Source: Methanomassiliicoccaceae archaeon (GTDB lineage Archaea > Thermoplasmatota > Thermoplasmata > Methanomassiliicoccales > Methanomassiliicoccaceae). From it: a stretch of 64,000 nucleotides of DNA. The position numbers were made by a program, and so were the translations under genes. Numbering within the stretch: the stretch's first letter is position 1; each line of letters opens with the position of its first letter. This document shows, piece by piece, positions 7,980-19,802 of the stretch. The stretch covers positions 512,001-576,000 of the forward strand of contig JAXGZN010000002.1 of assembly GCA_040776945.1 (NCBI GenBank). Direction: 5' to 3'. The notes under the pieces were generated by a model. That model made no database searches. It was not told the origin of the DNA and saw only the letters and a program-made list of their open reading frames with translations.

Positions 7980-10511
7980 TCACTTCCCGTATTTCCTTTT
8001 CACCTCTGGAGTGTACCTCCTCAGCAGCGCTGCGTTGCTGACCACCGATACCGAGCTCATGGCCATCGCCGCGGCGGCCACGATGGGATTGAGCAGCAGT
8101 CCAAAGAACGGATACAGCACCCCTGCGGCAATGGGGATGCCTGCGGAATTGTAACCGAGCGCCCAGAACAGGTTCTGGCGTATCTTGGTCAACGTCCTCT
8201 TGGAGAGCTGGATGGCGGCCACCGCATCGAGCAGGTCGCTTCGGATCAGAACTATGTCCCCGGTCTCCATGGCCACATCGGTACCGCTGCCTATGGCGAT
8301 GCCTACGTCCGCCTGCGCCAGAGCCGGCGCGTCGTTCACTCCGTCCCCTATCATGGCCACCCGTCTGCCCTCGGCCTGCAGCCTGGCAACTTCCTGTGCC
8401 TTGTTCTCCGGCAGGACTTCGGCGATGTAGCGGTCGATGCCCACCTGGGAGGCGATGACCTTTGCTGTCCGGGGGTTGTCCCCGGTCAGCATGAGCACAT
8501 CGATCCCCATCTCCTTTAGCTCGGAGACCGCCTCCTTGGACGTCTCCTTCACCACATCGGCAACGCCTATTATGCCTATGAGAGCGGGGCCCGAGGACAC
8601 CAGCATTGCGGTGCGGCCCTCCTCCTCCATGCGCTGCAGGTCGGTCTCCGCTACGGACATGGATATCCCGTTGGAATCCATCATCCTCCTGTTTCCTATG
8701 AGAACTGTCCGCCCGTCGACAACTGCCCTCACTCCCTGCCCGGGAACGGCCTCGAAGCTATCAGCATCAGGGACCGATACGCCGTCTCTCATGGCCCGGC
8801 GGACGATGGCCTCGGCCAGAGGATGCTCGGAGCTCTTCTCCACCGCGGCGGCGGTTCTCAGGACATCGGCCTCGGTGCCATCCAGGACCAAGATGTTGGT
8901 GACCTCCGGTTCTCCTTTGGTGATAGTGCCGGTCTTGTCCATGATCACCAACTGGACCTTGCCTGTGTTCTCCAGGGCCTCAGCGCTCTTGAACAGTATG
9001 CCGTTCTCGGCCCCCTTCCCTGAGCCGACCATGATTGCCGTCGGCGTGGCCAGGCCAAGCGCACAGGGACACGATATCACCAGGACAGAGATGAAAATGA
9101 TCAGTGAGAACACGAACCCCTCGTCCCCTCCCACGAGAACCCCGTAAGCGTAGAGATACCAGATGAAGAACGCCACTGTGGCGATGACTATGACCGCCGG
9201 CACGAACCATGCCGACACACTGTCGGCATACCTCTGTATGGGGGCCTTCGATGATTGGGCATCCTCCACCAGTCTGATTATCTGCGCCAAAGCGGTGTCC
9301 TTTCCCACCTTGGTGGCTCGGACCTTGAGGACCCCGTTCTTGTTGATGGAACCGCCGACCACAGGTGATCCCGAGGTCTTGTCGATCGGTATGGACTCAC
9401 CGGTGATCATGCTCTCGTCGACCGCGGAACTGCCATCCTCCACCGTTCCATCGGTAGCGATCTTCTCCCCAGGGCGAACGATGAACAGATCATCGACCTT
9501 CAGGAGCTCGACCGGGACCTCTATCTCGGCCCCGTCCCTGACGACCCTGGCGGTCCGGGCCTGTAGTCCCACTAGCTTGCGTATGGCCTGAGACGTCCGC
9601 CCCTTGGCCTTGGCCTCAAGGTATTTGCCGAACAATATCAGGGAGATGATCATGGCCGAGCTGTCGAAGTAGGTGTGATGATGGAAAGGTATCAGCGATG
9701 GGAAGAACACCACGGCCACTGAATAGAAGTACGCGGCCGATGAACCCATTGCGATCAAGGTATCCATGTTCGCGCGGCGGTTCTTCAGAGCGTAATAGGT
9801 GCCCAGGTAGAACTGGAAGCCTGCTATGAACTGAACCGGGGTGGCCATTATGAACAGCAGGAGGTTCTCGAACCCGGATATGCCCAGCGCCGCCCCCCAG
9901 CCGAAGAAGTCGAACCCGATCATGAGGACCATTATCGGAACGCTCAAGGCAAGGGAGAACACAAGAAGGGTCAACTGTCTCTTCTGTTCCTTCTCTCTTT
10001 CCGCCATCTCTGTGTCCAGAGTCTCGGACTCCAGCACCTCGTAGCCCGCGTTCACGATGGCGGCCTTAATCGCTTCGAGGGTCACCATCTCCGGGTTGAA
10101 TCGAACCATGGCCTTCTCCGTGGCCAGATTGACACTGGCGGAGAGGACGCCTTCCATTGCGGTCAATACATCCTCTATTATGCCGGCGCAGGAGGCGCAG
10201 ACCATGCCTTTGATCCCCAACGTGACCTGGTCCACCGCTACGTCGTAGCCTGCCTTCTGGACGGCGGCGGCGATCTTCGATGGATCGACCAGCGAAGGAT
10301 CGTATACCACCCGGGCCTTCTCAGTTGCCAGGTTGACCGGGGCCTCTATCACCCCTGGCAATTTCCCGATGGCATCCTCGACGGTACCAGCGCAGGATGC
10401 GCAGGTCATCCCGGTAACTCCCAATGTTATCGTCTTCGTCGTTCCCGGACCAGGCTTCGGGGGCGGCAAAGGGCAGACCTCATCATTGCACGGCTCGTTC
10501 ACGCCAAGCAA
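7980..10511 (-). CDS. copA: Copper-translocating P1B-type ATPase
   Basis: Two HMA domains (GMTCASC, GMVCASC), TGES, CPC, DKTGT, SEHPL, GDGVND, YN and MAMSS motifs. Confidence 0.95.
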   Translation of the reverse strand: MLGVNEPCNDEVCPLPPPKPGPGTTKTITLGVTGMTCASCAGTVEDAIGKLPGVIEAPVNLATEKARVVYDPSLVDPSKIAAAVQKAGYDVAVDQVTLGIKGMVCASCAGIIEDVLTAMEGVLSASVNLATEKAMVRFNPEMVTLEAIKAAIVNAGYEVLESETLDTEMAEREKEQKRQLTLLVFSLALSVPIMVLMIGFDFFGWGAALGISGFENLLLFIMATPVQFIAGFQFYLGTYYALKNRRANMDTLIAMGSSAAYFYSVAVVFFPSLIPFHHHTYFDSSAMIISLILFGKYLEAKAKGRTSQAIRKLVGLQARTARVVRDGAEIEVPVELLKVDDLFIVRPGEKIATDGTVEDGSSAVDESMITGESIPIDKTSGSPVVGGSINKNGVLKVRATKVGKDTALAQIIRLVEDAQSSKAPIQRYADSVSAWFVPAVIVIATVAFFIWYLYAYGVLVGGDEGFVFSLIIFISVLVISCPCALGLATPTAIMVGSGKGAENGILFKSAEALENTGKVQLVIMDKTGTITKGEPEVTNILVLDGTEADVLRTAAAVEKSSEHPLAEAIVRRAMRDGVSVPDADSFEAVPGQGVRAVVDGRTVLIGNRRMMDSNGISMSVAETDLQRMEEEGRTAMLVSSGPALIGIIGVADVVKETSKEAVSELKEMGIDVLMLTGDNPRTAKVIASQVGIDRYIAEVLPENKAQEVARLQAEGRRVAMIGDGVNDAPALAQADVGIAIGSGTDVAMETGDIVLIRSDLLDAVAAIQLSKRTLTKIRQNLFWALGYNSAGIPIAAGVLYPFFGLLLNPIVAAAAMAMSSVSVVSNAALLRRYTPEVKRKYGK

Positions 10512-10643
10512 TTGACCTAGCCTTTCAATTAACTTTGCCCCGATAAAAAGGAGAGTCGGGTCCCTTTACGAACGTAAGGTCGAGGCGGGCCGCCCCTCTC
10601 CGAATGGGAAGTAATTTTAACATAGCGTTCCAAAGGATAGAGC

Positions 10644-11234
10644 ATGATGGGATTGGATGAGAACGATTTGAACATCCTCAACGTTCTCCAGACCAATGGT
10701 CGACTATCCTATCGGCAGATATCCGAGAGGATCAGGATATCTGTTCCCACGGTGAGCAGCAAGATCGGCAACCTAGAGCGGATAGGCATCATCAGCGGTT
10801 ATCACGCCCGACTCGACCCTGAGAGGATGGGCGAGTTCAGCGCCATGGTGACGGTGAAGGCCCGCCCCTCGGAGCTGCCTGTGGTCATACGCCATTTTAA
10901 AAGTGATGACCAGGTGCGGCAGGTGTTCCTGCTGACCGGCGGTCGCCTTCTCCTCATATGCACATACGTGGATGTGCGAGCGCTGAACGAGTTTGCCTCC
11001 AAGCTAGCTTTGATCCCTGAGATATTGGACTATGACGTTGCTAACGTGATAGGCGTGGCCAAGGAGCTGCACAGAGCGGTCGTGGCCTCTGGGGCATCGC
11101 CGACCGCCAAGTGTGCCAATTGCGGGATCGAGATACGAGGGGGTGCCCTCCGCCTTAAGAAGGGTTCCTTGGTCCATCATCTATGTTCCGAAGGCTGCCT
11201 CGCCGCTTTCCGCGGCCGTCTGGGTAAATTATGA
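10644..11234 (+). CDS. Lrp/AsnC-type HTH regulator with C-terminal TRASH domain (CopR/CopT-like)
   Basis: LDENDLNILNVLQTNGRLSYRQI wHTH; CANCG...HHLCSEGC TRASH motif; divergent from copA. Confidence 0.85.
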   Translation: MMGLDENDLNILNVLQTNGRLSYRQISERIRISVPTVSSKIGNLERIGIISGYHARLDPERMGEFSAMVTVKARPSELPVVIRHFKSDDQVRQVFLLTGGRLLLICTYVDVRALNEFASKLALIPEILDYDVANVIGVAKELHRAVVASGASPTAKCANCGIEIRGGALRLKKGSLVHHLCSEGCLAAFRGRLGKL

Positions 11235-11290: not shown

Positions 11291-12055
11291 TCAGCGGTCG
11301 TCGGAGAGCCGGCTCTCAGGGGTCCCTAGGAGCAGATCGGGCAGCGACCTCACGCTGTCGATGAACACAGAACAGCCGGCCCTTATCCAATCATCGCGCC
11401 CGAAGGTGCCGCTCAGAACACCGATGAAGCCGGCCGAGACCGAGCGGGCGCAGCTGAGGTCCATCCCATGATCGCCAACCAAGACGCAATCTACGGCCTT
11501 GAGCCCCATCATGCCAGCGATCCTCTCCATCGCCTTGCCGTTCGGTTTTGCCTCCTCCTCAGGAAAATCGTCCCGGCAGATCATCGGAACCGTCATAAGG
11601 TCCAGACCAGCGTAGTGTATGGCGGCCTGGGCGTATGCACGGGACCCACGGGTCAGGATACCGATGGCGAGGCCTGCCCCCTCGATACTAGCGAGACAGT
11701 CCTCGGCACCTTCGATCGGAGTGGTGTCGGCAACGTGCTCTATCTCCGTCATGTTCATGATGTCGCTCATGGCCCGATGCAACTGCGGGACTTTTCCCCC
11801 TAGACCATTGGCCTTTAGATAGTTCACCGCTTTTGCGAGATCATCGGCGGTGGTCCTTCCGCCTTCAAGCTCTGATGCCGGGATGCCGTGGGCGATGAGC
11901 CCTCCAACGATCCGGAGCCTCATCAGGCCGAAGTTGACGGTGGAATTGATGAGCGTGCCGTCAAGATCGAACACGACGCCGCGGACGCGCCGACCGAGGT
12001 TGCGAGGAACGATCACGCTGTCCTCATCACCCTCCGGATATTTAGTGAGGTCCAT
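11291..12055 (-). CDS. HAD-superfamily hydrolase (phosphoglycolate phosphatase-like)
   Basis: FDLDGTL, ILTRG, KPNG, VGDHGMD. Confidence 0.85.
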   Translation of the reverse strand: MDLTKYPEGDEDSVIVPRNLGRRVRGVVFDLDGTLINSTVNFGLMRLRIVGGLIAHGIPASELEGGRTTADDLAKAVNYLKANGLGGKVPQLHRAMSDIMNMTEIEHVADTTPIEGAEDCLASIEGAGLAIGILTRGSRAYAQAAIHYAGLDLMTVPMICRDDFPEEEAKPNGKAMERIAGMMGLKAVDCVLVGDHGMDLSCARSVSAGFIGVLSGTFGRDDWIRAGCSVFIDSVRSLPDLLLGTPESRLSDDR

Positions 12056-12141
12056 GCATGCTCATTATCAATAGAAATAATAGCAGGCCAGATGGCTATC
12101 TGCAAGGCGTCATTACCAGTTTTGATATTTAAAGGTATTCG

Positions 12142-12170
12142 GAGCATGCTCAACTACCTCTTTTATATTT
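12142..12170 (+). promoter_or_regulatory. Palindrome GAGCATGCTC followed by the TATA box of the repeat-peptide gene
   Basis: GAGCATGCTC at 12142-12151; TTTTATATTT at 12161-12170; SD-like GGTGAGG at 12202-12208. Confidence 0.6.
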
Positions 12171-12212
12171 CAAAAACCAAAACGGTCTAAAAAGGAAGAC
12201 CGGTGAGGAAAG

Positions 12213-12434
12213 ATGAAAGCAAGAACAATGACCCTGATTGGATTCGTAGCGCTCTTATTGGCCGCGTTCGGCACGGTCGCAGTGGTAGCTGACGTGGCCT
12301 CGGTGAACCTCATCATTCCAGGAATAGACCCGCACATCATCCCGGGCATCGATCCTCATATCATCCCCGGTATCGATCCGCACATCATTCCAGGAATAGA
12401 CCCGCACATCATCCCGGGCATCGATCCTCATTAA
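12213..12434 (+). CDS. Secreted precursor peptide: signal peptide plus 5x IIPGIDPH
   Basis: MKAR n-region, hydrophobic h-region, VVA|D cleavage-like site; own TATA box, SD and terminator; repeats differ only synonymously. Confidence 0.85.
   Translation: MKARTMTLIGFVALLLAAFGTVAVVADVASVNLIIPGIDPHIIPGIDPHIIPGIDPHIIPGIDPHIIPGIDPH
12312..12431 (+). repeat. Five tandem 24-bp coding repeats, pattern A-B-C-A-B
   Basis: A=ATCATTCCAGGAATAGACCCGCAC, B=ATCATCCCGGGCATCGATCCTCAT, C=ATCATCCCCGGTATCGATCCGCAC. Confidence 0.95.
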
Positions 12435-12438
12435 GCTC

Positions 12439-12480
12439 ATTGCCTCTTGCCCCCCTCGAGGCAATATATTTTTTATTTTT
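12439..12480 (+). terminator. Hairpin plus T-tract between the convergent peptide and STAND genes
   Basis: ATTGCCTC (12439-12446) pairs with GAGGCAAT (12458-12465), followed by long T runs. Confidence 0.65.
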
Positions 12481-12481
12481 C

Positions 12482-15172
12482 TCAGGCCAGGCTAGCAAGG
12501 GCCTGCTCGACCTCTTTTTTTAGATTCTCCGCAGACCCATGCGTAGTGAGCTGCAACGCCTCCTGAAGCAGACCGCTTGCGCCCTCTTTATCGCCGTTCT
12601 TTATGAACTGCTGGGCTATCTCATACAGCCAGCGCCCCAGAAGTAGGGGCGCGTCTTGCCTTCTGATGGTTTCCAAGGCATCGGTGAACTCGGCCTTGGC
12701 CCACTCCCACTCCATTCTCTTGTTGAAAATATAGCCGCGCATCAGGTGCAGGTCCGCCAACAGAACATTGTTCCCGAGCTTCTCGAATATCTTGCTCGCT
12801 TGGTTGATATGCTCTTGAGCCTGTTCCAGCATGTCGATCTCCACATACACGACCACAGCGTTCCTGAGCGCATATCCTTGCAGCTCCAGGTTCCCGGAGG
12901 TGCGGCCCATTTCAGCCGCCCGCTCGTGATATTTGACCGCCTCAGAATAGTTGTGCACCTCTGCCAGGCTTGTACCAAGACCGATGCATATCTTGGCGAT
13001 ATTGTCTACATCCCCTGTCCTTTCTATGACCTCCAGCGCCTCCTTTTTATATTTGATGGCCTGGTGATGGTCGATCAATGACGAGTACACGCGCCCGATG
13101 CCATACAAGGCCAATCCCAGACCGATATCGTCCATAGCGCTTTGTGCAAGTTCCATAGAACGGCGGAAGGCAACCATTGCATCTTGGTGGCGGCCTCGGT
13201 TCTGCAGAACCCCTCCCAGGTCGTAATAGGTCTCCACCAGTGCGTGAGGGTCTTTCACGTCCTCCGCCAACCCAAGGCTCCGCTTGAGATATTCCTCGGC
13301 CTTATCGAACACCGAGCGCCTAAGGTAGATAGCGCCAAGCCTGCGGTTGACCTCAGCTAGCAGTCTGCGGTCCGTTTGCGGATCGCTCAGGCCTATGATC
13401 TCCTCGAACCTGGTTATCGCCTGGTCCCACTCTCCGCGAACCTCTAGGACATCGCCCTCGAGGAGAAGAAGCTCCATCTTCTCACTTCGATCGATGTTAT
13501 CGCACTGTGCCCTAAGAGATGTGAGGAGAGGTGCGAACGGAAGGCTGTAGCCCTTGGATATGATGTCCCGGCCGCTGCCTGCCGCGATCCGCACCGCGGT
13601 GCTGTACTCCTTGGCCATCAAGCAATGGTACAACGCCTCCACGTGCGCTGGAGCGGAATTATCCAAGAGGTAATACCTGGACGCTGCCTTGTGATAGGTA
13701 ACGCGCTGCCGCGGAGAAAGCCGGGAGTAGAAGAAGTCGCGCAGCAGGTCATGCATCCCGATCATGCGACCTAAGGACTCATGCATCAGCGATTTGGAAA
13801 GGAGTGAATCTATGGTATCATAGTCGACGAGGTAGTCCTTGTACTCCATCTCCTTCTGGAAAAGACCAAGGTCTTTGGCGATCTCTTCCTCCATGGTGAA
13901 GAAAGCGTCAACGAGCACCGGATAGCGGAACACCGAGGCGATGTCCATTATCCTGCGCTCGGTTATGTCGAGCTTGGAATATACCTCCTGCTCAATGAAC
14001 ATGCGGACGTTCTTTCCCAGAGCGCTCTGCGGACCGTCCACCAGCTCCAAAAAGAGAGGATGCCCTCGGGTGGCCCGGTATATGTCCATCAGCTCGTGCT
14101 CGGGCAGTTCGCGATTCCGCATGAGGCGTAGAGAGCTCTCAACATCCAGGCCCTCCAGCATCATCTCCTTGACCTGCCCCTTGAAGACGGCCGCACGCGA
14201 GTAGAACGAGGGGATCTCACGACTTGTGCAGATCAAAGAGACGTCAGAGATGGACTCAAGAACGATCACCATTGCGGACAGGAACTCTTGCACCGTCCTG
14301 TCCCCTTTCTGAACATCGTCGATGATGAACACCGTTGGCAGGTCCTGGAGGTCCATCTCCAAGATCCCGCATACCTCTCCTACCGCCGGGCTGTCCGTCC
14401 TAGAAAGATATCGCTCAAGCCCCTTCTTGCCGAGCTGCGAAAGGAATTCCGCGATCGGCGTGAGAAGGATCTTTAGGTTCACCCATTCATGGACCCGATA
14501 CCAGTATACGTGCCTCTGTTCCCTTATGTCCTGGACGAACTTCGCGAGGAGAGTGGTCTTCCCGATCCCCGGGATGCCGCAGACGGCCATTATGCTCGCC
14601 GTATCAGAGTTGAGAAAGTCGATAAGTTCGGCCATCTCTTTCTGCCTTCCATAGAAGCTGCGGACCGTTGGCTTGCGATCGGTGTAATCCACGAACCTCC
14701 GCTCCTGCTTAACTTTCCCCTCGTGGAAAGAAGAGCAGTCAAAGCTCCCCCTCGACACGCTGATCGCGAGGTCGAGGAAGGCATATCTCTTCGGCAGATA
14801 CAGGGACAGCTTGCCCAGCTCGTCCTCATGCACCTTGCCATCAAAATCGATAATGTTGATCTTGGTGCGTTCGATCTCGAGCTTGAGATTGAGGGCGTTC
14901 TGATAGCCGCTGGGAGTTAGGAAGTAGACCTTTTTTACACTGGCGAACCCCTTGACATGTCTGGTGTGGACCTCGACCACGCCTTCCCCTTCCATGCTAT
15001 TTACGATCTTGGAGACATTGTTCCGTCCGACATCGACAGCCTCAGCTATCCCTTCCTGGGTAACGGTCGCCGGAGCGTCAGGATCTTGCTGATACCTCTG
15101 GTATGCCAGGAGGTGCAGGATGACCCTCTCACGCACGGTAAGCAGGGACTTCCTGGAGGAGCGGTTCACCAA
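12482..15172 (-). CDS. wHTH - STAND-class P-loop NTPase - TPR regulator
   Basis: N-terminal wHTH (TQEGIAEAVDVGRNNVSKIV..KKVYFLT); FYGRQKE, Walker A GIPGIGKT, Walker B VFIIDD, TSRE, GHPLFL; C-terminal TPR-like repeats. Confidence 0.85.
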   Translation of the reverse strand: MVNRSSRKSLLTVRERVILHLLAYQRYQQDPDAPATVTQEGIAEAVDVGRNNVSKIVNSMEGEGVVEVHTRHVKGFASVKKVYFLTPSGYQNALNLKLEIERTKINIIDFDGKVHEDELGKLSLYLPKRYAFLDLAISVSRGSFDCSSFHEGKVKQERRFVDYTDRKPTVRSFYGRQKEMAELIDFLNSDTASIMAVCGIPGIGKTTLLAKFVQDIREQRHVYWYRVHEWVNLKILLTPIAEFLSQLGKKGLERYLSRTDSPAVGEVCGILEMDLQDLPTVFIIDDVQKGDRTVQEFLSAMVIVLESISDVSLICTSREIPSFYSRAAVFKGQVKEMMLEGLDVESSLRLMRNRELPEHELMDIYRATRGHPLFLELVDGPQSALGKNVRMFIEQEVYSKLDITERRIMDIASVFRYPVLVDAFFTMEEEIAKDLGLFQKEMEYKDYLVDYDTIDSLLSKSLMHESLGRMIGMHDLLRDFFYSRLSPRQRVTYHKAASRYYLLDNSAPAHVEALYHCLMAKEYSTAVRIAAGSGRDIISKGYSLPFAPLLTSLRAQCDNIDRSEKMELLLLEGDVLEVRGEWDQAITRFEEIIGLSDPQTDRRLLAEVNRRLGAIYLRRSVFDKAEEYLKRSLGLAEDVKDPHALVETYYDLGGVLQNRGRHQDAMVAFRRSMELAQSAMDDIGLGLALYGIGRVYSSLIDHHQAIKYKKEALEVIERTGDVDNIAKICIGLGTSLAEVHNYSEAVKYHERAAEMGRTSGNLELQGYALRNAVVVYVEIDMLEQAQEHINQASKIFEKLGNNVLLADLHLMRGYIFNKRMEWEWAKAEFTDALETIRRQDAPLLLGRWLYEIAQQFIKNGDKEGASGLLQEALQLTTHGSAENLKKEVEQALASLA

Positions 15173-15225
15173 GCCAGAATGAGGATATTAGGAATAAAAT
15201 GTTTCTAATAAATTCAGCAAAAAAA

Positions 15226-15251
15226 GAGCATGCTCAAAATCGTATTATATA
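15226..15251 (+). promoter_or_regulatory. Second GAGCATGCTC palindrome plus TATA box in the STAND/DUF835 divergent region
   Basis: GAGCATGCTC at 15226-15235; TTATATA at 15245-15251. Confidence 0.6.
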
Positions 15252-15294
15252 CGCACAAGGAGAAAATAGGTATGAAGAATACAAGGTGATCGGA

Positions 15295-15843
15295 ATGAAC
15301 AACGGTTCCAAGATATCCCTGCTCCTTGAGGACTATCCTCGGAATGGCTATCACATATACTCCAAGATCGTTGGTCGCTCCACCAGCGGCCTCTGCATTT
15401 CCCGCCTGCATCCCGAATACGTGGGCCAGAAGTACGGCCTGGAGATGTCCAAAAGATACTGGCTAAGCGGCCAGAGCGGCGTTGACGTGATCTCCCCTAA
15501 GTCCCTTAACCACCTCCTCAAAGTGATCCGCCAGGAGCTTAGGGGCAGATCGGGAGGAACAATATTCCTCGACGGACTGGAATATCTTCTTCTATTCCAC
15601 GATATGAACAGGATACTTGGCATCCTAGAGCAGATCGATTCCCTCCTCAGGGAGGCCAAGGTGGAGCTCATCGTGGCTATGGACCCCCTGACCTTCGAGC
15701 AGAAGGACCTCGATACGCTTTATGCGGCCTTCCCTCACTCTTCCAGTGAAGAGATGATGGCAAGGCTGTCTGCCCAGGGCCCCTCGGCCATGGCCTCGAC
15801 CAGAGCGGTGTCCGCACCTCCCAGGGCCAGTCTGCGGGTCTGA
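15295..15843 (+). CDS. DUF835 domain protein (inactive KaiC/RecA-like)
   Basis: GLCISRLHPE, YWLS, ISPKSL, IFLDGLEYL, MDPLTF; GGTGA SD before ATG 15295. Confidence 0.8.
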   Translation: MNNGSKISLLLEDYPRNGYHIYSKIVGRSTSGLCISRLHPEYVGQKYGLEMSKRYWLSGQSGVDVISPKSLNHLLKVIRQELRGRSGGTIFLDGLEYLLLFHDMNRILGILEQIDSLLREAKVELIVAMDPLTFEQKDLDTLYAAFPHSSSEEMMARLSAQGPSAMASTRAVSAPPRASLRV

Positions 15844-15955
15844 GAGGGAGACCACTCCCCTTCCCCAAATCCCTTAATTTCTTTTGTCTGCCCTTTTCAT
15901 CGGTCATGGCTCCTTGCCCGTTTGGTCACGGAACGGACAAGAGGGTCCGATGGGC

Positions 15956-16510
15956 TCAGATGCATTCACTAGGGGTCACGATCTCGGCGAAGCGCCTGAG
16001 GCGGGCAACATATCGCGGGTCCATGGACAATGGGTCCAGAGGGACGAGCATGAGGGCTCTCGAGGCCATGATCCCATCGTTCACCTGTTCAAGGAACATC
16101 TGCACTTTGGTGGGGTCGTTGAACAAGGTCAAATACTCCACGCCCTCAAGGAGCACGACCGCGTTCCTCTTGCCCATTAAGAACGTCGAGACACGCTGCG
16201 ATATCCTGTGAAGCTGGTTCGGCGGAATGTTGGCAGCACCCGGCCGCTCGCTCAGCCAAGCGCATTCCAGCGATACTCCGGGCATCTGCTCTTGAAGCAG
16301 ATCTGGGTGCAGGCGGGTGACACACAGTGCCTTTGAGCCGGAAAAGACGAAATCCTGCAATATCCTCAGCGTCCTCTCCATCTTCTTCTCGCAAACGAAA
16401 TATATCCTTCCGAAATCAAAAAGGAAATCCTCTCCGGCGCTCAAGCTCACAAGGTCGGCACTCAATGTGTTGCCTCTCTGAGGAATCGGCACGGACGAAT
16501 TCACTTCCAC
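15956..16510 (-). CDS. DUF835 domain protein
   Basis: ALCVTRLHPD, WLSE, IPPNQL, VLLEGVEYL, LDPLSM. Confidence 0.8.
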   Translation of the reverse strand: MEVNSSVPIPQRGNTLSADLVSLSAGEDFLFDFGRIYFVCEKKMERTLRILQDFVFSGSKALCVTRLHPDLLQEQMPGVSLECAWLSERPGAANIPPNQLHRISQRVSTFLMGKRNAVVLLEGVEYLTLFNDPTKVQMFLEQVNDGIMASRALMLVPLDPLSMDPRYVARLRRFAEIVTPSECI

Positions 16511-16652
16511 AACCCCGGAACGAGGTCTGGGGCGTTATCAAGATTGTTTTAGATATATAAAAAGCCAATCTCGTAAAAGTTCGAAAGGGTGCCCCACCGC
16601 CCTCCCATCGATCTCTCCGAGAAGGCGAACGGGGCAGGACAGGCCTCACGCT

Positions 16653-17972
16653 TCACCGCACATTGTTCATCTCTCCGCTGAGGTATTTGGCGTAACCGCC
16701 CATGTCAAGAAGGCCATGCCCGGAAAGGTTGAACACTATGGTCTTCTCTTCGTTCTTCCTCTTGGCCTCGAGCGCCAGGTCCATGGCCGCCTTGATGGCA
16801 TGCGAGGATTCGGGTGCAGGGACTATCCCTTCAGCACGGGCGAAGATAATCGCGGCTTCGAACGTCTGCAGCTGCTCATAGGACACCGCACGGGCGAACC
16901 CCTGATCGACCACCGCGGTCACGGCCGGGGCCATCCCATGGTAGCGGAGCCCGCCGGCGTGTATCGAGGAGGGCACGAAGTCGTGGCCCAAGGTATACAT
17001 CTTCAGCAGAGGGGTCATTCCTGCGGTGTCGCCGAAGTCGTACCGGTTCTCGCCCTTGGTGATGGAAGGGACCGAGGTAGGCTCGACCGCTATGAACTCG
17101 GTATCGATCTTCCCCTTGATCTTCTTCCCGATCATCGGGAAACTGAACCCGGCGAAGTTGCTCCCTCCGCCCACGCAGCCGACCATGTAGTCGGGAACAA
17201 CGTCGATCAGTTCCAGTTGTTGCATGACCTCCTGGCCGATGACGGTCTGGTGCAGCATTACGTGATTGAGCACACTGCCCAAAGAGTATTTCGTGTTGGG
17301 CTGGTGGATGCAAAGCTCGATGGCCTCGGAGATGGCGATCCCCAGCGTCCCGGGATGGTCGGGGCGTTCTTTCAGGACCTTCCTGCCATACTCGGTCTCG
17401 CTGCTGGGTGATGAATGCACCTTGGACCCGTAGGTCTCCATGATGAGACGCCTGAACGGCTTTTGGTCATATGACACCCTGACCATGAACACGGTGCAGT
17501 TCATGTCGAAATGGGCGCAGGCCAAGGCAAGCGCGGAGCCCCACTGTCCTGCGCCCGTTTCCGTGGTCAGGTTCTCCACCCCTTCCTTCATATTGTAATA
17601 CGCTTGGGGCAGGGCCGAGTTGGGCTTATGCGACCCAGCAGGAGAGAGGTCCTCGCGCTTGAAATAGATCTTGGCCGGGGTCTTAAGGAAGGCTTCCAAC
17701 CGCCGGGCTCTTTGCAGCGGCGACGGCCGGCCCAACATCAGATACGAATCCCTGACCTCTTCCGGTATGTCGATATATCTTTCGGTGGACATCTCCTGGG
17801 CGATGGCGGCCTTCGGAAATATCGCCGCAAGTTCCTCAGGCCTTGCCGGTTCCATGGTCTGAGGGTTCAGAGGAGGCGGGATAGGCACTGGCAGGTCGGC
17901 AGCAATGTTGTACCATCTGCGGGGGATGTCATCGATGTTAAGGATCACCTTGTCTTCAGCGTGTATTGCCAT
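16653..17972 (-). CDS. trpB2: TrpB2 (tryptophan synthase beta-like PLP enzyme)
   Basis: [48 protein letters not shown]. Confidence 0.93.
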
Positions 17973-18038
17973 GTCTCAAGGGAAAAGGATGCTAAATATT
18001 TAACACTTATGCGTATTGATGAACACATATGAACATTA

Positions 18039-19802
18039 TCAGCCACATGTATCGCATTGCATCGCCCCCTCCTCGCTATGGACAAAGCGTCCGCATACCG
18101 GGCAGCATCTCCTGTTCCTTGTTGAGGTGAGCACCTGATCGGGTCTCGACCCCTCTCGATATACAGTAATTCCCTTGCATCCCCTGCGGTGCGCATGGAT
18201 GAAAATGTGCCTAACGTCCGCCCAGGTTGCAGAAGCAGAGAGGTTGATGGTCTTGGATACAGCATTGTCGACATGCCTCTGGAAGGCCGCCTGCATATCT
18301 ATCTGGTCACCTGGCGGGATATCATGGGCTGTAAGAAAGACCTGTCTGACGTCCGACGGCACATCCTTCAAGCCCTGGATCGACCGTGTGCCAGCTATCT
18401 TCTCCAACAGCTCAGGGGATAGGAAGCCCCCCTTTCTGGCCGCCTCCTTGAAGAGGGGCAGCACCTCGTACAGGCGTTGTCCCTCAAGCGCGCGCCGAGA
18501 ATAGGAAACGGCGTAATAAGGCTCGATCCCAGATGAACAGCCGGCGATCAAGCTGATCGTACCGGTAGGGGCTATGGAGAGCAAGGTGGCGTTCCTTCGT
18601 GGCCCTTTGATGATCGAAGCATCGATGCTGGGGAAGCTCCCCCTGGACTCAGCTATGGTCCGCGAGGTGCGTTCCGCCCTCTCTCGAATGAAGGCCATAA
18701 GCTTGTCTGCCAACCGCAGTGATGCTGAGCTGCCGTAAGGAAGACCCATCCTTACCAGAAGGTCCGCGAACCCCATTATTCCGAGACCTATCTTGCGATT
18801 CATCTTAACGACCTCGGCGGTTTGGACAAGAGGAAAGCGGTTGGCATCGATGACATTGTCCAGGAACCTGATGCCCAGGTCCACCGTTCTCGCCAAATGG
18901 TCCCAATCCACTTTTCCATCAGATGCCATGCGGTCGAGGTTCACCGAGCCGAGGTTGCAGGCCTCGAACGGCAGCAGAGGCACTTCCCCACAAGGGTTGG
19001 TCGCATCTATGTTCCCTTGTTCTGGTGTAGGGTTGTCCCGGTTCACCGTGTCGATGAACAACGCTCCCGGGTCTCCGACCCTCCAGGCAGATGTGGCCAT
19101 CCTTTCTAGGATATAGGACGCTGAGATCGTTCGGACCTTCGTTCCATCGCGAGGGTTCACCAGATCATATCCTTCACCGTGCGCTGCGCGGTCCATGAAA
19201 TCGTCGGTCACCGCCACCGATAGATTGAAGTTCGACAGGGAGGAGAGGTCCTCCTTGACGCCAATGAACCGCTCGATGTCCGGATGGTCGACCCTCAGGA
19301 CGCCCATGTTCGCTCCTCGTCTCCGGCCTCCCTGCTTAATGGAATTGGTCGCGGCGTCGAAGACCGTCATGAACGATACCGGGCCGGAAGCGACCCCGCC
19401 AGTTGAACGGACGATGTCCCCCTCCGGCCGCAGGTTGGAGAAGGAGAAACCGACCCCGCCCCCTGTCTGTTGGACGATCGCCCCGTATTTTATCGCATCA
19501 TAGATGCTCTCTATGGAGTCCCCGACAGGTATCACGAAGCATGCCGATAGCTGCTGTATGCTGGTGCCGGCGTTCATCAGCGTCGGTGAGTTCGGAAGGA
19601 ACTCCAACGAGCGCATCGCCTGGAAGAACTCCTCCTCTTCGTTCCCGCGATCGCCATACAGCTCGTTCACCGCCGCGACATTGGATGCTACACGACGGAA
19701 CATCTGCTCTGGCGTTTCTATGGTCTGGCCGTTCTCATCCTTCATTAGATATCTCTTCTCCAGAATGAGCATCGCATTTGGCGAGAACGAAGGCGGCCGC
19801 AT
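18039..19802 (-). CDS. nrdJ: Class II (adenosylcobalamin-dependent) ribonucleotide reductase
   Basis: PNSPTLMNAG, LSACFV, RRGANMG, TNPCGE, ACNLGS, IAPTGT, KGITVYR; C-terminal Cys pairs. Confidence 0.92.
   Translation of the reverse strand: MRPPSFSPNAMLILEKRYLMKDENGQTIETPEQMFRRVASNVAAVNELYGDRGNEEEEFFQAMRSLEFLPNSPTLMNAGTSIQQLSACFVIPVGDSIESIYDAIKYGAIVQQTGGGVGFSFSNLRPEGDIVRSTGGVASGPVSFMTVFDAATNSIKQGGRRRGANMGVLRVDHPDIERFIGVKEDLSSLSNFNLSVAVTDDFMDRAAHGEGYDLVNPRDGTKVRTISASYILERMATSAWRVGDPGALFIDTVNRDNPTPEQGNIDATNPCGEVPLLPFEACNLGSVNLDRMASDGKVDWDHLARTVDLGIRFLDNVIDANRFPLVQTAEVVKMNRKIGLGIMGFADLLVRMGLPYGSSASLRLADKLMAFIRERAERTSRTIAESRGSFPSIDASIIKGPRRNATLLSIAPTGTISLIAGCSSGIEPYYAVSYSRRALEGQRLYEVLPLFKEAARKGGFLSPELLEKIAGTRSIQGLKDVPSDVRQVFLTAHDIPPGDQIDMQAAFQRHVDNAVSKTINLSASATWADVRHIFIHAHRRGCKGITVYREGSRPDQVLTSTRNRRCCPVCGRFVHSEEGAMQCDTCG

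Follow-up and report, generated by a model that had tools for sequence, protein, structure and literature searches.

We analysed a window of 64,000 nucleotides from a Methanomassiliicoccaceae archaeon (contig JAXGZN010000002.1, positions 512,001 to 576,000; 'the window' below) and describe here a group of genes that it carries: a peptide precursor gene, a gene for a regulator with winged helix-turn-helix (wHTH), STAND NTPase and TPR domains, and two DUF835 genes (Table 1). Judged by its sequence, this cassette appears to be the first archaeal signalling circuit based on a peptide. We propose that it is a four-gene unit, vertically inherited in the Methanomassiliicoccales, whose octapeptide would act as inducer or anti-inducer of the adjacent STAND regulator, and we regard this proposal as an even call. 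The cassette is a directly testable archaeal signalling candidate in methanogens of digesters, sediments and wetlands. It is also a well defined one, comprising an octapeptide, a receptor, an 11-bp operator and three target promoters.

The peptide gene and its conservation beside the regulator

The precursor reads directly as MKAR, a hydrophobic run of 22 residues, DVASVNL, five IIPGIDPH units and the stop. The five units are exact (12312-12431), and TRF reported a period of 24 nt and 4.9 copies for the underlying DNA (12311-12427). The copies occur in three DNA versions, which differ at 7 codon positions, all synonymous. A TATA-like box TTTTATATTT and a Shine-Dalgarno (SD) sequence GGTGAGGA (12202-12209) were read by eye upstream of the gene, and the hairpin with T-run downstream is probably a bidirectional terminator. 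The convergent stop codons of the peptide and STAND genes are 47 nt apart. The first-pass annotation of this DNA had listed the 73-aa open reading frame (ORF) with its hydrophobic leader, DVASVNL and repeats, a TATA box, SD and terminator of its own, an 896-aa wHTH-STAND-TPR protein lying tail-to-tail at 47 nt and two DUF835 genes on the far side of that protein. All of these were recovered here, by direct reading for the peptide gene and by coordinates and Pfam matches for the others.

The 896-aa protein was searched against 61 genomes of Methanomassiliicoccales, the window's own included. An orthologue, full-length or split (47-90% identity), was found in 40 of them; there was none in the ten genomes of family f7, nor in genera g3 and g4. 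For 39 of the 40 STAND-bearing genomes we found a cognate peptide gene or an array of mini-ORFs, nearly always convergent with the regulator and within about 30-390 nt of its 3' end. The exceptions are two peptide genes on the end of another contig and one located 1.3 kb off. The first-pass annotation would have been overturned by receptor homologues that never adjoin such peptide ORFs, and this is clearly not what these genomes contain. By tblastn, both DUF835 paralogues stand beside the regulator in all of the 29 loci compared; a DUF835-1 orthologue follows the operator in 29/30 loci by ORF picker and in 29/29 by tblastn. Together these counts support the view that one conserved unit is made up of the genes for the peptide, the STAND regulator and the DUF835 proteins. 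The sole label carried by database homologues of the precursor is 'hypothetical protein'. Scanning metagenomes with the precursor confirmed at least 4 loci, three of which end within the repeats.

Several versions of the unit occur in the order: IIPGIDPH (4-12 copies), IIPSIDPH, TIPLIDPH, IIPGLEPH, MPLPGVGPH, IPVSDPH/IPVNDPH/IPMSDPH, IPGNDPH, IPGNSPH, IPMLDPH, IPVLDPH, IPFLDPH/IPFIDPH and IPGTDPH. Loci from public genome records add A/VIPGVDPH (12-13 units), IPLLDPH, MIPHIDPH and NIPGIDPI. The core common to these is a heptapeptide, I-P-x-x-[D/S/E]-P-H, and the residue preceding it varies even inside one protein. Copy number ranges from 1 to 13. Unconserved spacers of 8-20 residues part the units in families f2, f4 and f6. 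Most precursors terminate at exactly ...PH followed by the stop. Masked (N) stretches cover the repeats in L008, L014, L016, L017, L159 and L160, so that copy numbers were left uncounted there. In G042 (L056/L031), a complete one-contig genome, IIPGTDPH is read three times and the DNA repeat then runs on in two other frames; this precursor is either a frameshifted pseudogene or the result of a repeat assembly error.

Core codon positions that vary within a gene were counted in 27 genes. The count leaves aside the frame-shifted L031/L056, the partly masked L008, L014, L016 and L017, and L010, whose gene falls outside the flank. Variation was synonymous at 129 positions and led to a replacement at 2. 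This pattern rules out a chance ORF and indicates that the small unit itself is selected, each unit being, on this codon evidence, under strong purifying selection.

The leader of the IIPGIDPH precursor, with an n-region charge of +2 and an h-region of 22 aa, fits a Sec signal and a signal anchor alike. Among the tabulated precursors, 27/28 have a basic n-region (+1 to +3) and a hydrophobic run of 21-30 residues, a length sufficient for a signal anchor. In several of them the first unit stands 3 residues after the h-region, with no AxA-like site between.

One lineage encodes its peptide differently. What follows the peptide promoter in G008, instead of a leader and repeat ORF, is a tandem array in which a 114-nt unit recurs 3.6 times with 99% identity. 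Within each unit stand an SD-like GGTGG and a cistron of nine codons, ATG TTT GGA AGC ATC GGT CCG CAC TAA, which reads MFGSIGPH; there are four such leaderless 8-aa cistrons in total. Its sister G003 has an intact regulator of the 896-aa class and a first MFGSIGPH cistron, after which the sequence is masked. MFGSIGPH has the length of the tandem period found elsewhere and also ends in PH. On this reading, an octapeptide of mature length can be encoded directly, and the mini-cistrons are the strongest sequence argument for a free peptide of ~8 residues over a repeat protein. The octapeptide would thus have three interchangeable encodings: tandem units, spaced units and tandem leaderless mini-cistrons. 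An array of this kind is an unusual prokaryotic way to encode a peptide of mature length. The first-pass annotation had left room for a permuted or cyclic octapeptide; neither is favoured, nearly all precursors and all mini-ORFs ending in ...PH and the stop.

An operator-like element at the cassette promoters

The dyad GAGCATGCTC at 12142-12151, upstream of the peptide gene, is part of an invariant 11-mer, AGCATGCTCAA, that precedes the TATA box by 8 nt. The 11-mer is found before the peptide gene, before the STAND/DUF835-1 pair and often before a Fap7-like gene. A 12-mer containing the dyad, GAGCATGCTCAA, has exactly two copies in the window, at 12142 and 15226. This pairing far exceeds chance, since a related pattern has 3 sites in the whole 2.17-Mb genome and its reversed control 0. 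At the second site the AT-box (15206-15214) is read on the minus strand, towards the STAND gene. The palindrome had earlier been described as common to the peptide and DUF835 promoters. This holds for the peptide gene and DUF835-1 and fails for DUF835-2, where the region upstream (16511-16600) has a TATA-like box and neither GCATGC nor the dyad.

Across the order, the element lies upstream of the peptide gene in 29/30 loci (in the 30th the same element stands further out), with the consensus tATttaaa-N8-GtAGCATGCTCAA..ACc..TTttATAtt. The start codon of the peptide gene follows the 11-mer by 61-76 nt. A second copy was found between the regulator and DUF835-1 in 30/30 loci. We then searched genomes for AGCATGCTCAA-N8-TWWATA. 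It was present in 43 of the 61 relatives, including all 40 STAND-bearing genomes, and its reversed control gave 0. The three genomes beyond the STAND set are G026, G027 (peptide gene at the contig end) and G055 (66% complete). Family f7 had no site in any of its 10 genomes. In a phylum-wide sample, 6/301 genomes had the motif, all of them in the order, against 0/258 genomes outside it. Most genomes have exactly two sites, which flank the STAND gene in the same orientation and point away from the peptide-gene side. A wHTH-TPR paralogue of ~430 aa occurs in genomes lacking the AGCATGCTCAA motif; the motif therefore tracks the STAND protein and not this paralogue.

At each site the dyad sits, as read from the sequence, halfway between two divergent AT-rich boxes. 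We infer that both sites are bidirectional promoters with a central operator, one serving the peptide and HAD genes and the other DUF835-1 and the regulator. The palindrome is an order-wide invariant operator-like element, and its placing would suit autoinduction.

A third site was found in 13 aligned genomes, the window's own included (contig C1, about 659060-659231; L035 1372-1525; also L039-L047, L049, L051 and L052). It precedes an element of ~70 nt, composed of GGAGAAGGyCC..CGGGGA, a GC-rich hairpin (in single-sequence folds) and a T-run, upstream of the gene for a Fap7-like AAA_18 kinase. This element contains no conserved ORF, has no Rfam match and gave nothing with ARAGORN. Five cassette-free genomes have the kinase gene and neither the motif nor the ~70-nt element. 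In G054 (contig C24, L048 600-1769), a gene for a REC-PAS-PAS response regulator stands behind a DUF835-type operator copy, and is possibly a lineage-specific regulon member.

The two DUF835 genes match PF05763 ('iKaiC') with 72.6 and 81.0 bits, above the gathering cut-off of 33.1. Sequence searches of the PDB with DUF835-1 and DUF835-2 returned chance-level matches only. For DUF835-1 the true start is probably the ATG at 15295 rather than 15199: the longer frame would contain the promoter element, orthologues begin at this ATG and RNA contigs begin at 15286-15301. PMC5847659 lists DUF835, as an inactivated KaiC, among the output domains of archaeal response regulators, and the DUF835 proteins are plausible outputs of the circuit.

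A HAD orthologue lies upstream of the peptide gene in 19/29 loci, and in 4/4 among the metagenome matches listed. The HAD hydrolase is a possible fifth member of the cassette, in which case the leftward AT-box of the bidirectional promoter would drive it and it would be co-regulated with the peptide gene. Further upstream, the stretch 7980-11234 of the window encodes a P-type ATPase of the CopA type, which has two HMA domains, and an AsnC/Lrp regulator whose C-terminal part is a zinc-finger/TRASH-like module. After the cassette, 16653-19802 contains a TrpB2-like homologue of tryptophan synthase beta and a 587-aa ribonucleotide reductase-like gene with a Cys-rich C-terminal tail. TrpB2 is found at the flank end in 5/29 loci.

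Table 1. Coordinates of the cassette features in the window, and of the small genes found beside distant STAND homologues
Feature	Sequence	Position	Strand	Remarks
HAD-family hydrolase	Window	11291..12055	-	Divergent from peptide gene; Pfam Hydrolase/HAD_2
Peptide-gene promoter/operator	Window	12125..12170	+	AT-box ATATTTAAA 12125-12133; dyad GAGCATGCTC 12142-12151; TATA-like TTTTATATTT 12161-12170
Peptide precursor ORF	Window	12213..12434	+	73 aa, TAA stop; leader, then five IIPGIDPH units
Inverted repeat and T-run	Window	12440..12481	.	Hairpin TTGCCTC...GAGGCAA 12440-12464, T-run 12468-12481, between convergent genes
wHTH-STAND(NOD)-arm-TPR regulator	Window	12482..15172	-	896 aa, TTG start; Pfam
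Second operator, STAND/DUF835-1 divergent intergenic	Window	15206..15251	+	Dyad GAGCATGCTC 15226-15235, TATTATATA 15243-15251
DUF835-1	Window	15295..15843 (longer frame from 15199)	+	182 aa from ATG 15295; Pfam PF05763
DUF835-2	Window	15956..16510	-	184 aa, convergent with DUF835-1; Pfam PF05763
86-aa small protein	L090	5167-5427	-	Beside distant STAND
86-aa small protein	L106	5169-5429	-	Beside distant STAND
86-aa small protein	L113	5117-5377	-	Beside distant STAND
86-aa small protein	L117	2446-2706	-	Beside distant STAND

The regulator, the proposed circuit and its alternatives

Pfam divides the regulator into an HTH (residues 15-80), an NTPase matched by AAA_16, ATPase_2 and NB-ARC (173-376) and a repeat domain matched by TPR_12 and TPR_MalT (557-807). 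The three NTPase scores exceed the Pfam cut-offs; TPR_12 scored 89 bits and TPR_MalT 45.8 bits (cut-off 45). Matches of residues 15-80 to HTH_Crp_2 and TrmB stayed under their cut-offs. Walker A GIPGIGKT (199-206), Walker B DD (285-286) and GHP (370-372) are unchanged across 28 orthologues; L012 and L018 were excluded from the regulator alignment (A1). The protein thus has the features by which STAND proteins are recognised, namely the NOD motifs, a TPR repeat sensor and a terminal DNA-binding domain. No transmembrane segment was predicted in it, and the gene has one copy in its own genome. The nearest solved structure is PH0952 (6mfv), with a profile E of 4.7e-45 across the NOD. Rap, NprR-like and AfsR chains match it as generic TPR only: matches to RapF, RapJ and 5dbk are confined to the TPR region, with an E of about 4e-9 for Rap/NprR. 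By these domain and profile matches, the regulator belongs to the MalT/PH0952-type STAND family.

The circuit that we propose would run as follows, each biochemical step, and the sign of the peptide effect (activation or inhibition), being deduced from sequence. The precursor would be inserted or exported via its Sec-type leader and proteases would release the units, whose ends would be shielded by Pro as third and as penultimate residue. Peptide bonds of the X-Pro type on the N-terminal side and of the Pro-X type at the C terminus resist exopeptidases, and could set the ends after spacer cuts. The peptide would accumulate and be taken up, plausibly by an Opp-type ABC importer, to bind the TPR sensor, possibly through its free C-terminal carboxylate. 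TPR domains often clamp such carboxylates, as Hop does with EEVD and PEX5 with SKL; a clamp of this kind would account for the rule that a stop follows the unit. The NOD would open, exchange ADP for ATP and multimerise, as in MalT/PH0952-type STANDs. The wHTH would then bind the AGCATGCT dyad between divergent TATA boxes and switch the peptide gene (a feedback), DUF835-1, probably its own gene and the unlinked leader-plus-Fap7-like locus. With an extracellular route in most lineages, this would be a quorum-sensing-like circuit. In its fullest form the proposal is that of a first archaeal peptide-pheromone system and a first MalT/PH0952-type STAND with an encoded peptide inducer, in which a free -Pro-His octapeptide with three encodings controls KaiC-like DUF835 and a ribosome-biogenesis kinase locus. 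We advance this fuller statement tentatively, at somewhat under even chances.

Natural losses bear on the pairing of peptide and receptor. In G026 (99% complete), the genes for CopA, the AsnC/TRASH regulator and HAD stand on one side and the operator with DUF835 on the other, and both the peptide gene and the STAND gene are absent. The regulator of G060 is split over two frames; the dyad there is mutated, it has no DUF835 gene for a neighbour, and no precursor was found within 1.2 kb. In G011 the regulator is split and one degenerate unit is left. These knock-outs, few in number, agree with a peptide and a receptor that are retained or lost jointly.

The first-pass annotation had also raised the question whether the peptide sequence co-varies with pocket residues of the TPR domain. 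In-genus, where the pattern is clearer, the ratio of TPR to NOD divergence is 0.87 for pairs with the same octapeptide (n=21) and 1.54 for pairs with the MFGSIGPH lineage (n=8); in the latter the divergence is 0.304 for TPR, 0.198 for NOD and 0.201 for HTH. Order-wide (L014 excluded), the residual of TPR divergence against NOD correlates with peptide distance with r 0.19, a value reached in 103/2000 label permutations; the reverse residual shows no such correlation (r 0.035). Domain-level divergence goes in the expected direction. The in-genus contrast comes essentially from one lineage, with kin that are not independent, and gives weak support to a TPR domain diverging faster where the peptide differs.

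A number of observations weigh against the proposed circuit or limit what its support can carry. The co-variation signals rest on few independent events. G026 retains an operator before DUF835 although it has no STAND gene; this operator might be read by another factor, or the STAND loss might be recent. Most of a genus whose receptors share 80-90% identity has one and the same peptide; by sequence there is no pherotype diversification of the kind seen in many RRNPP systems. Units of L081 end in Ile and not in His. The leader is hydrophilic in the precursors of L026, L072 and L087, and missing altogether in the G003/G008 lineage; therefore Sec export is not universal, or another route is used. 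No protease linked to the cassette was found. In favour of import, PF00496, the Opp/Dpp/Nik-type binding protein, occurs in 38/40 cassette genomes and 2/21 others. The two genomes that miss it are 67% and 79% complete, both non-cassette carriers keep operator sites, and in genus g5 PF00496 and the cassette go hand in hand. As a sign of peptide import this co-occurrence is only a hint, because reduced host-associated lineages lose many genes. As to expression, four metatranscriptome runs from four studies yielded contigs identical to the window over the peptide gene (4/4), the regulator and the DUF835 genes, the promoter regions 12005-12199 and 15162-15285 being uncovered. Contig depths were 1523, 1453, 99-184 and about 27 over the repeats and 13, 9, 2-5 and 2-3 over the regulator, figures that cannot rank gene expression, and DNA may occur in RNA libraries. 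The cassette genes are represented in RNA libraries, which says nothing on level.

Full-length STAND homologues at 24-35% identity occur across the Thermoplasmatota, Poseidoniales included. Screening 54 distant loci for a 5-mer repeated at least three times and for the exact motif gave no repeat-peptide ORF and no 11-mer; this screen is crude and misses single-copy peptides. DUF835 matches were found in 4 of the 54 loci (L090, L093, L106 and L112). In L090, L106, L113 and L117 (30-34% identity) the regulator is convergent with the gene of an 86-aa signal-peptide protein, 6-23 nt from the regulator's stop, with a TSP3-like acidic motif DxDxDGLPDxWE and a variable C-terminal tail. L090 and L113 carry another CATG-centred palindrome (ACACATGTGT or TACATGTA) before the small gene and upstream of the regulator. 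The layout of a small exported product, a STAND protein and a shared dyad may thus predate the octapeptide.

These distant loci matter for the main rival, according to which the STAND protein senses another cytoplasmic cue and the secreted repeat peptide acts outside, in the matrix, in adhesion, metal binding or antagonism, as a product of the circuit and not its ligand. The 86-aa TSP3-like secreted partner of those four STANDs is a less obvious ligand, and an operator before the peptide gene shows that this gene is controlled, not that the peptide is sensed. The absence of diversification inside the genus and the very high contig depth over the peptide gene (depth that cannot rank genes) also agree with a mere output. 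Such a model leaves unexplained, however, why a leaderless array of 8-aa cistrons should replace a secreted precursor, why the TPR domain diverges selectively in the MFGSIGPH lineage and why peptide and receptor are lost jointly while DUF835 stays; nor does the cassette conserve any other gene that could produce a ligand. We consider it possible, on the doubtful side. The same mini-cistrons of G008/G003, together with the hydrophilic leaders of L026, L072 and L087 and the lack of a transmembrane segment in the regulator, could instead speak for feedback inside the producer only, the peptide binding the STAND protein as part of a bistable switch or a translation-coupled timer with no signal from cell to cell. 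The basic n-region and hydrophobic run of 27/28 precursors would however put the units outside, and the Opp-type binding protein co-occurs with the cassette, which makes this reading distinctly unlikely.

Multi-core precursors are typical of several classes of ribosomally made peptides that are modified after translation (RiPPs), and the units might be cores of this kind, modified (e.g. cyclised) by unlinked enzymes into an antimicrobial or a metallophore. A RiPP cluster would combine a leader precursor with dedicated modifying enzymes. Within the cassette and next to it there is no conserved modifying enzyme; the neighbours are the STAND protein, two DUF835 proteins and often HAD, and the mini-ORF form offers no leader for enzyme recognition. 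The TPR region has a weak NCBIfam match to the RiPP-associated TPR protein HaaT, but its 39.8 bits are far under the cut-off of 1125, and we hold a RiPP to be very unlikely. A membrane-anchored structural repeat protein, or an antiviral (Avs-like) STAND locus with a decoy peptide, appears to us hardly credible. An h-region of 21-30 residues could anchor a protein permanently, but the variable spacers, the range of 1 to 13 copies and the mini-cistrons speak otherwise. PADLOC gave weak matches to the P-loop regions of STAND_TPR/Avs4; against a defence function, the regulator is a single-copy orthologue in fixed synteny across the order and not part of a patchy defence island, and its N-terminal domain is a wHTH, neither nuclease nor protease. 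Membership in the Avs defence systems was rejected, the PADLOC matches covering only P-loop and generic TPR stretches.

Comparison with known systems

The proposed circuit shares several features with the RRNPP(A) peptide quorum-sensing systems of Firmicutes and their phages (Rap/Phr, NprR/NprX, PlcR/PapR, AimR/AimP). A small propeptide gene adjoins the gene for a cytoplasmic TPR protein, here a candidate receptor, that also has a DNA-binding domain; the propeptide ends in the putative active unit, which is present in several copies, an Opp-type importer is found in the genomes and the layout is feedback-like. Multi-copy propeptides with a C-terminal active unit are described as common for Rap, NprR, PlcR and AimR in the text consulted of PMC9765709. 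The differences are equally clear. RRNPP(A) receptors have an XRE HTH or a phosphatase domain and 5-9 TPRs in about 300-450 aa, with no NTPase, whereas the present regulator, with 896 aa, is more than twice as long and has a STAND NTPase (NOD and arm) between HTH and TPR. Its HTH is winged/ArsR-like and not of the XRE type. The system is archaeal, the unit includes two DUF835 genes and one lineage has leaderless mini-cistrons. Because its domain architecture differs from that of these receptors, the cassette is, by sequence, one that resembles RRNPP logic without being a member of the family.

A paralogue in the same genome (L005 1495-2775, contig C1) comes closer in architecture. It has 426 aa, with a wHTH 35% identical to that of the regulator fused directly to weak TPRs and no NTPase, a predicted organisation that is RRNPP-like. 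In relatives this type often occurs as two adjacent copies. No small ORF with a signal peptide was found within 1.5 kb on either side of L005.

With MalT and PH0952 the regulator shares the order of wHTH, NOD, arm and TPR sensor and the invariant Walker A, Walker B and GHP. By analogy its mechanism is likely the same: once the sensor has bound an inducer, the NOD would open and the protein form multimers. For PH0952, a MalT homologue, an ArsR-like N-terminal domain and a TPR sensor are described, together with a predicted role as transcription factor; the text consulted names no inducer for it, and the paper uses the word 'peptide' 0 times (PMC6468293). If the proposal is true, the cassette would supply a natural inducer for an archaeal STAND family of known structure. 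The inducer of MalT is a sugar, maltotriose, whereas the candidate inducer here is a genetically encoded peptide. MalT is inhibited by the RecA-like MalK, and a similar part for the KaiC-like DUF835 proteins is pure speculation.

Multi-copy precursors are known from yeast alpha-factor and neuropeptides, and peptides from polycistronic small ORFs from Drosophila tal/pri. As in these, several identical short units are carried by one transcript, within a single secreted precursor or as mini-ORFs in tandem, the units being kept and the spacers variable. The eukaryotic systems have unrelated receptors, and dibasic Kex2-type sites that are absent here.

Little is known of cell-to-cell communication in archaea according to a 2025 paper on Haloferax, and the signals named in its text as consulted are, for Methanosaeta, a carboxylated acyl-homoserine lactone and, for Haloferax, a small molecule that resists protease and is not a peptide (PMC12240190). 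The first-pass annotation knew of no described pair of peptide pheromone and STAND protein in methanogenic archaea, and we found none either: in full-text literature, supplementary files being outside the scope, there was no description of this peptide, cassette or operator, and the motif strings occurred in 0 papers. The likeness to these archaeal signals would be that an archaeon, and possibly a methanogen, uses a signal of the density type; the difference is that none of those named in that text is a peptide, and that no receptor of this kind is described there. If the proposed circuit is true, the logic of RRNPP systems, a secreted propeptide with a cytoplasmic TPR receptor, would have arisen independently on a STAND chassis.

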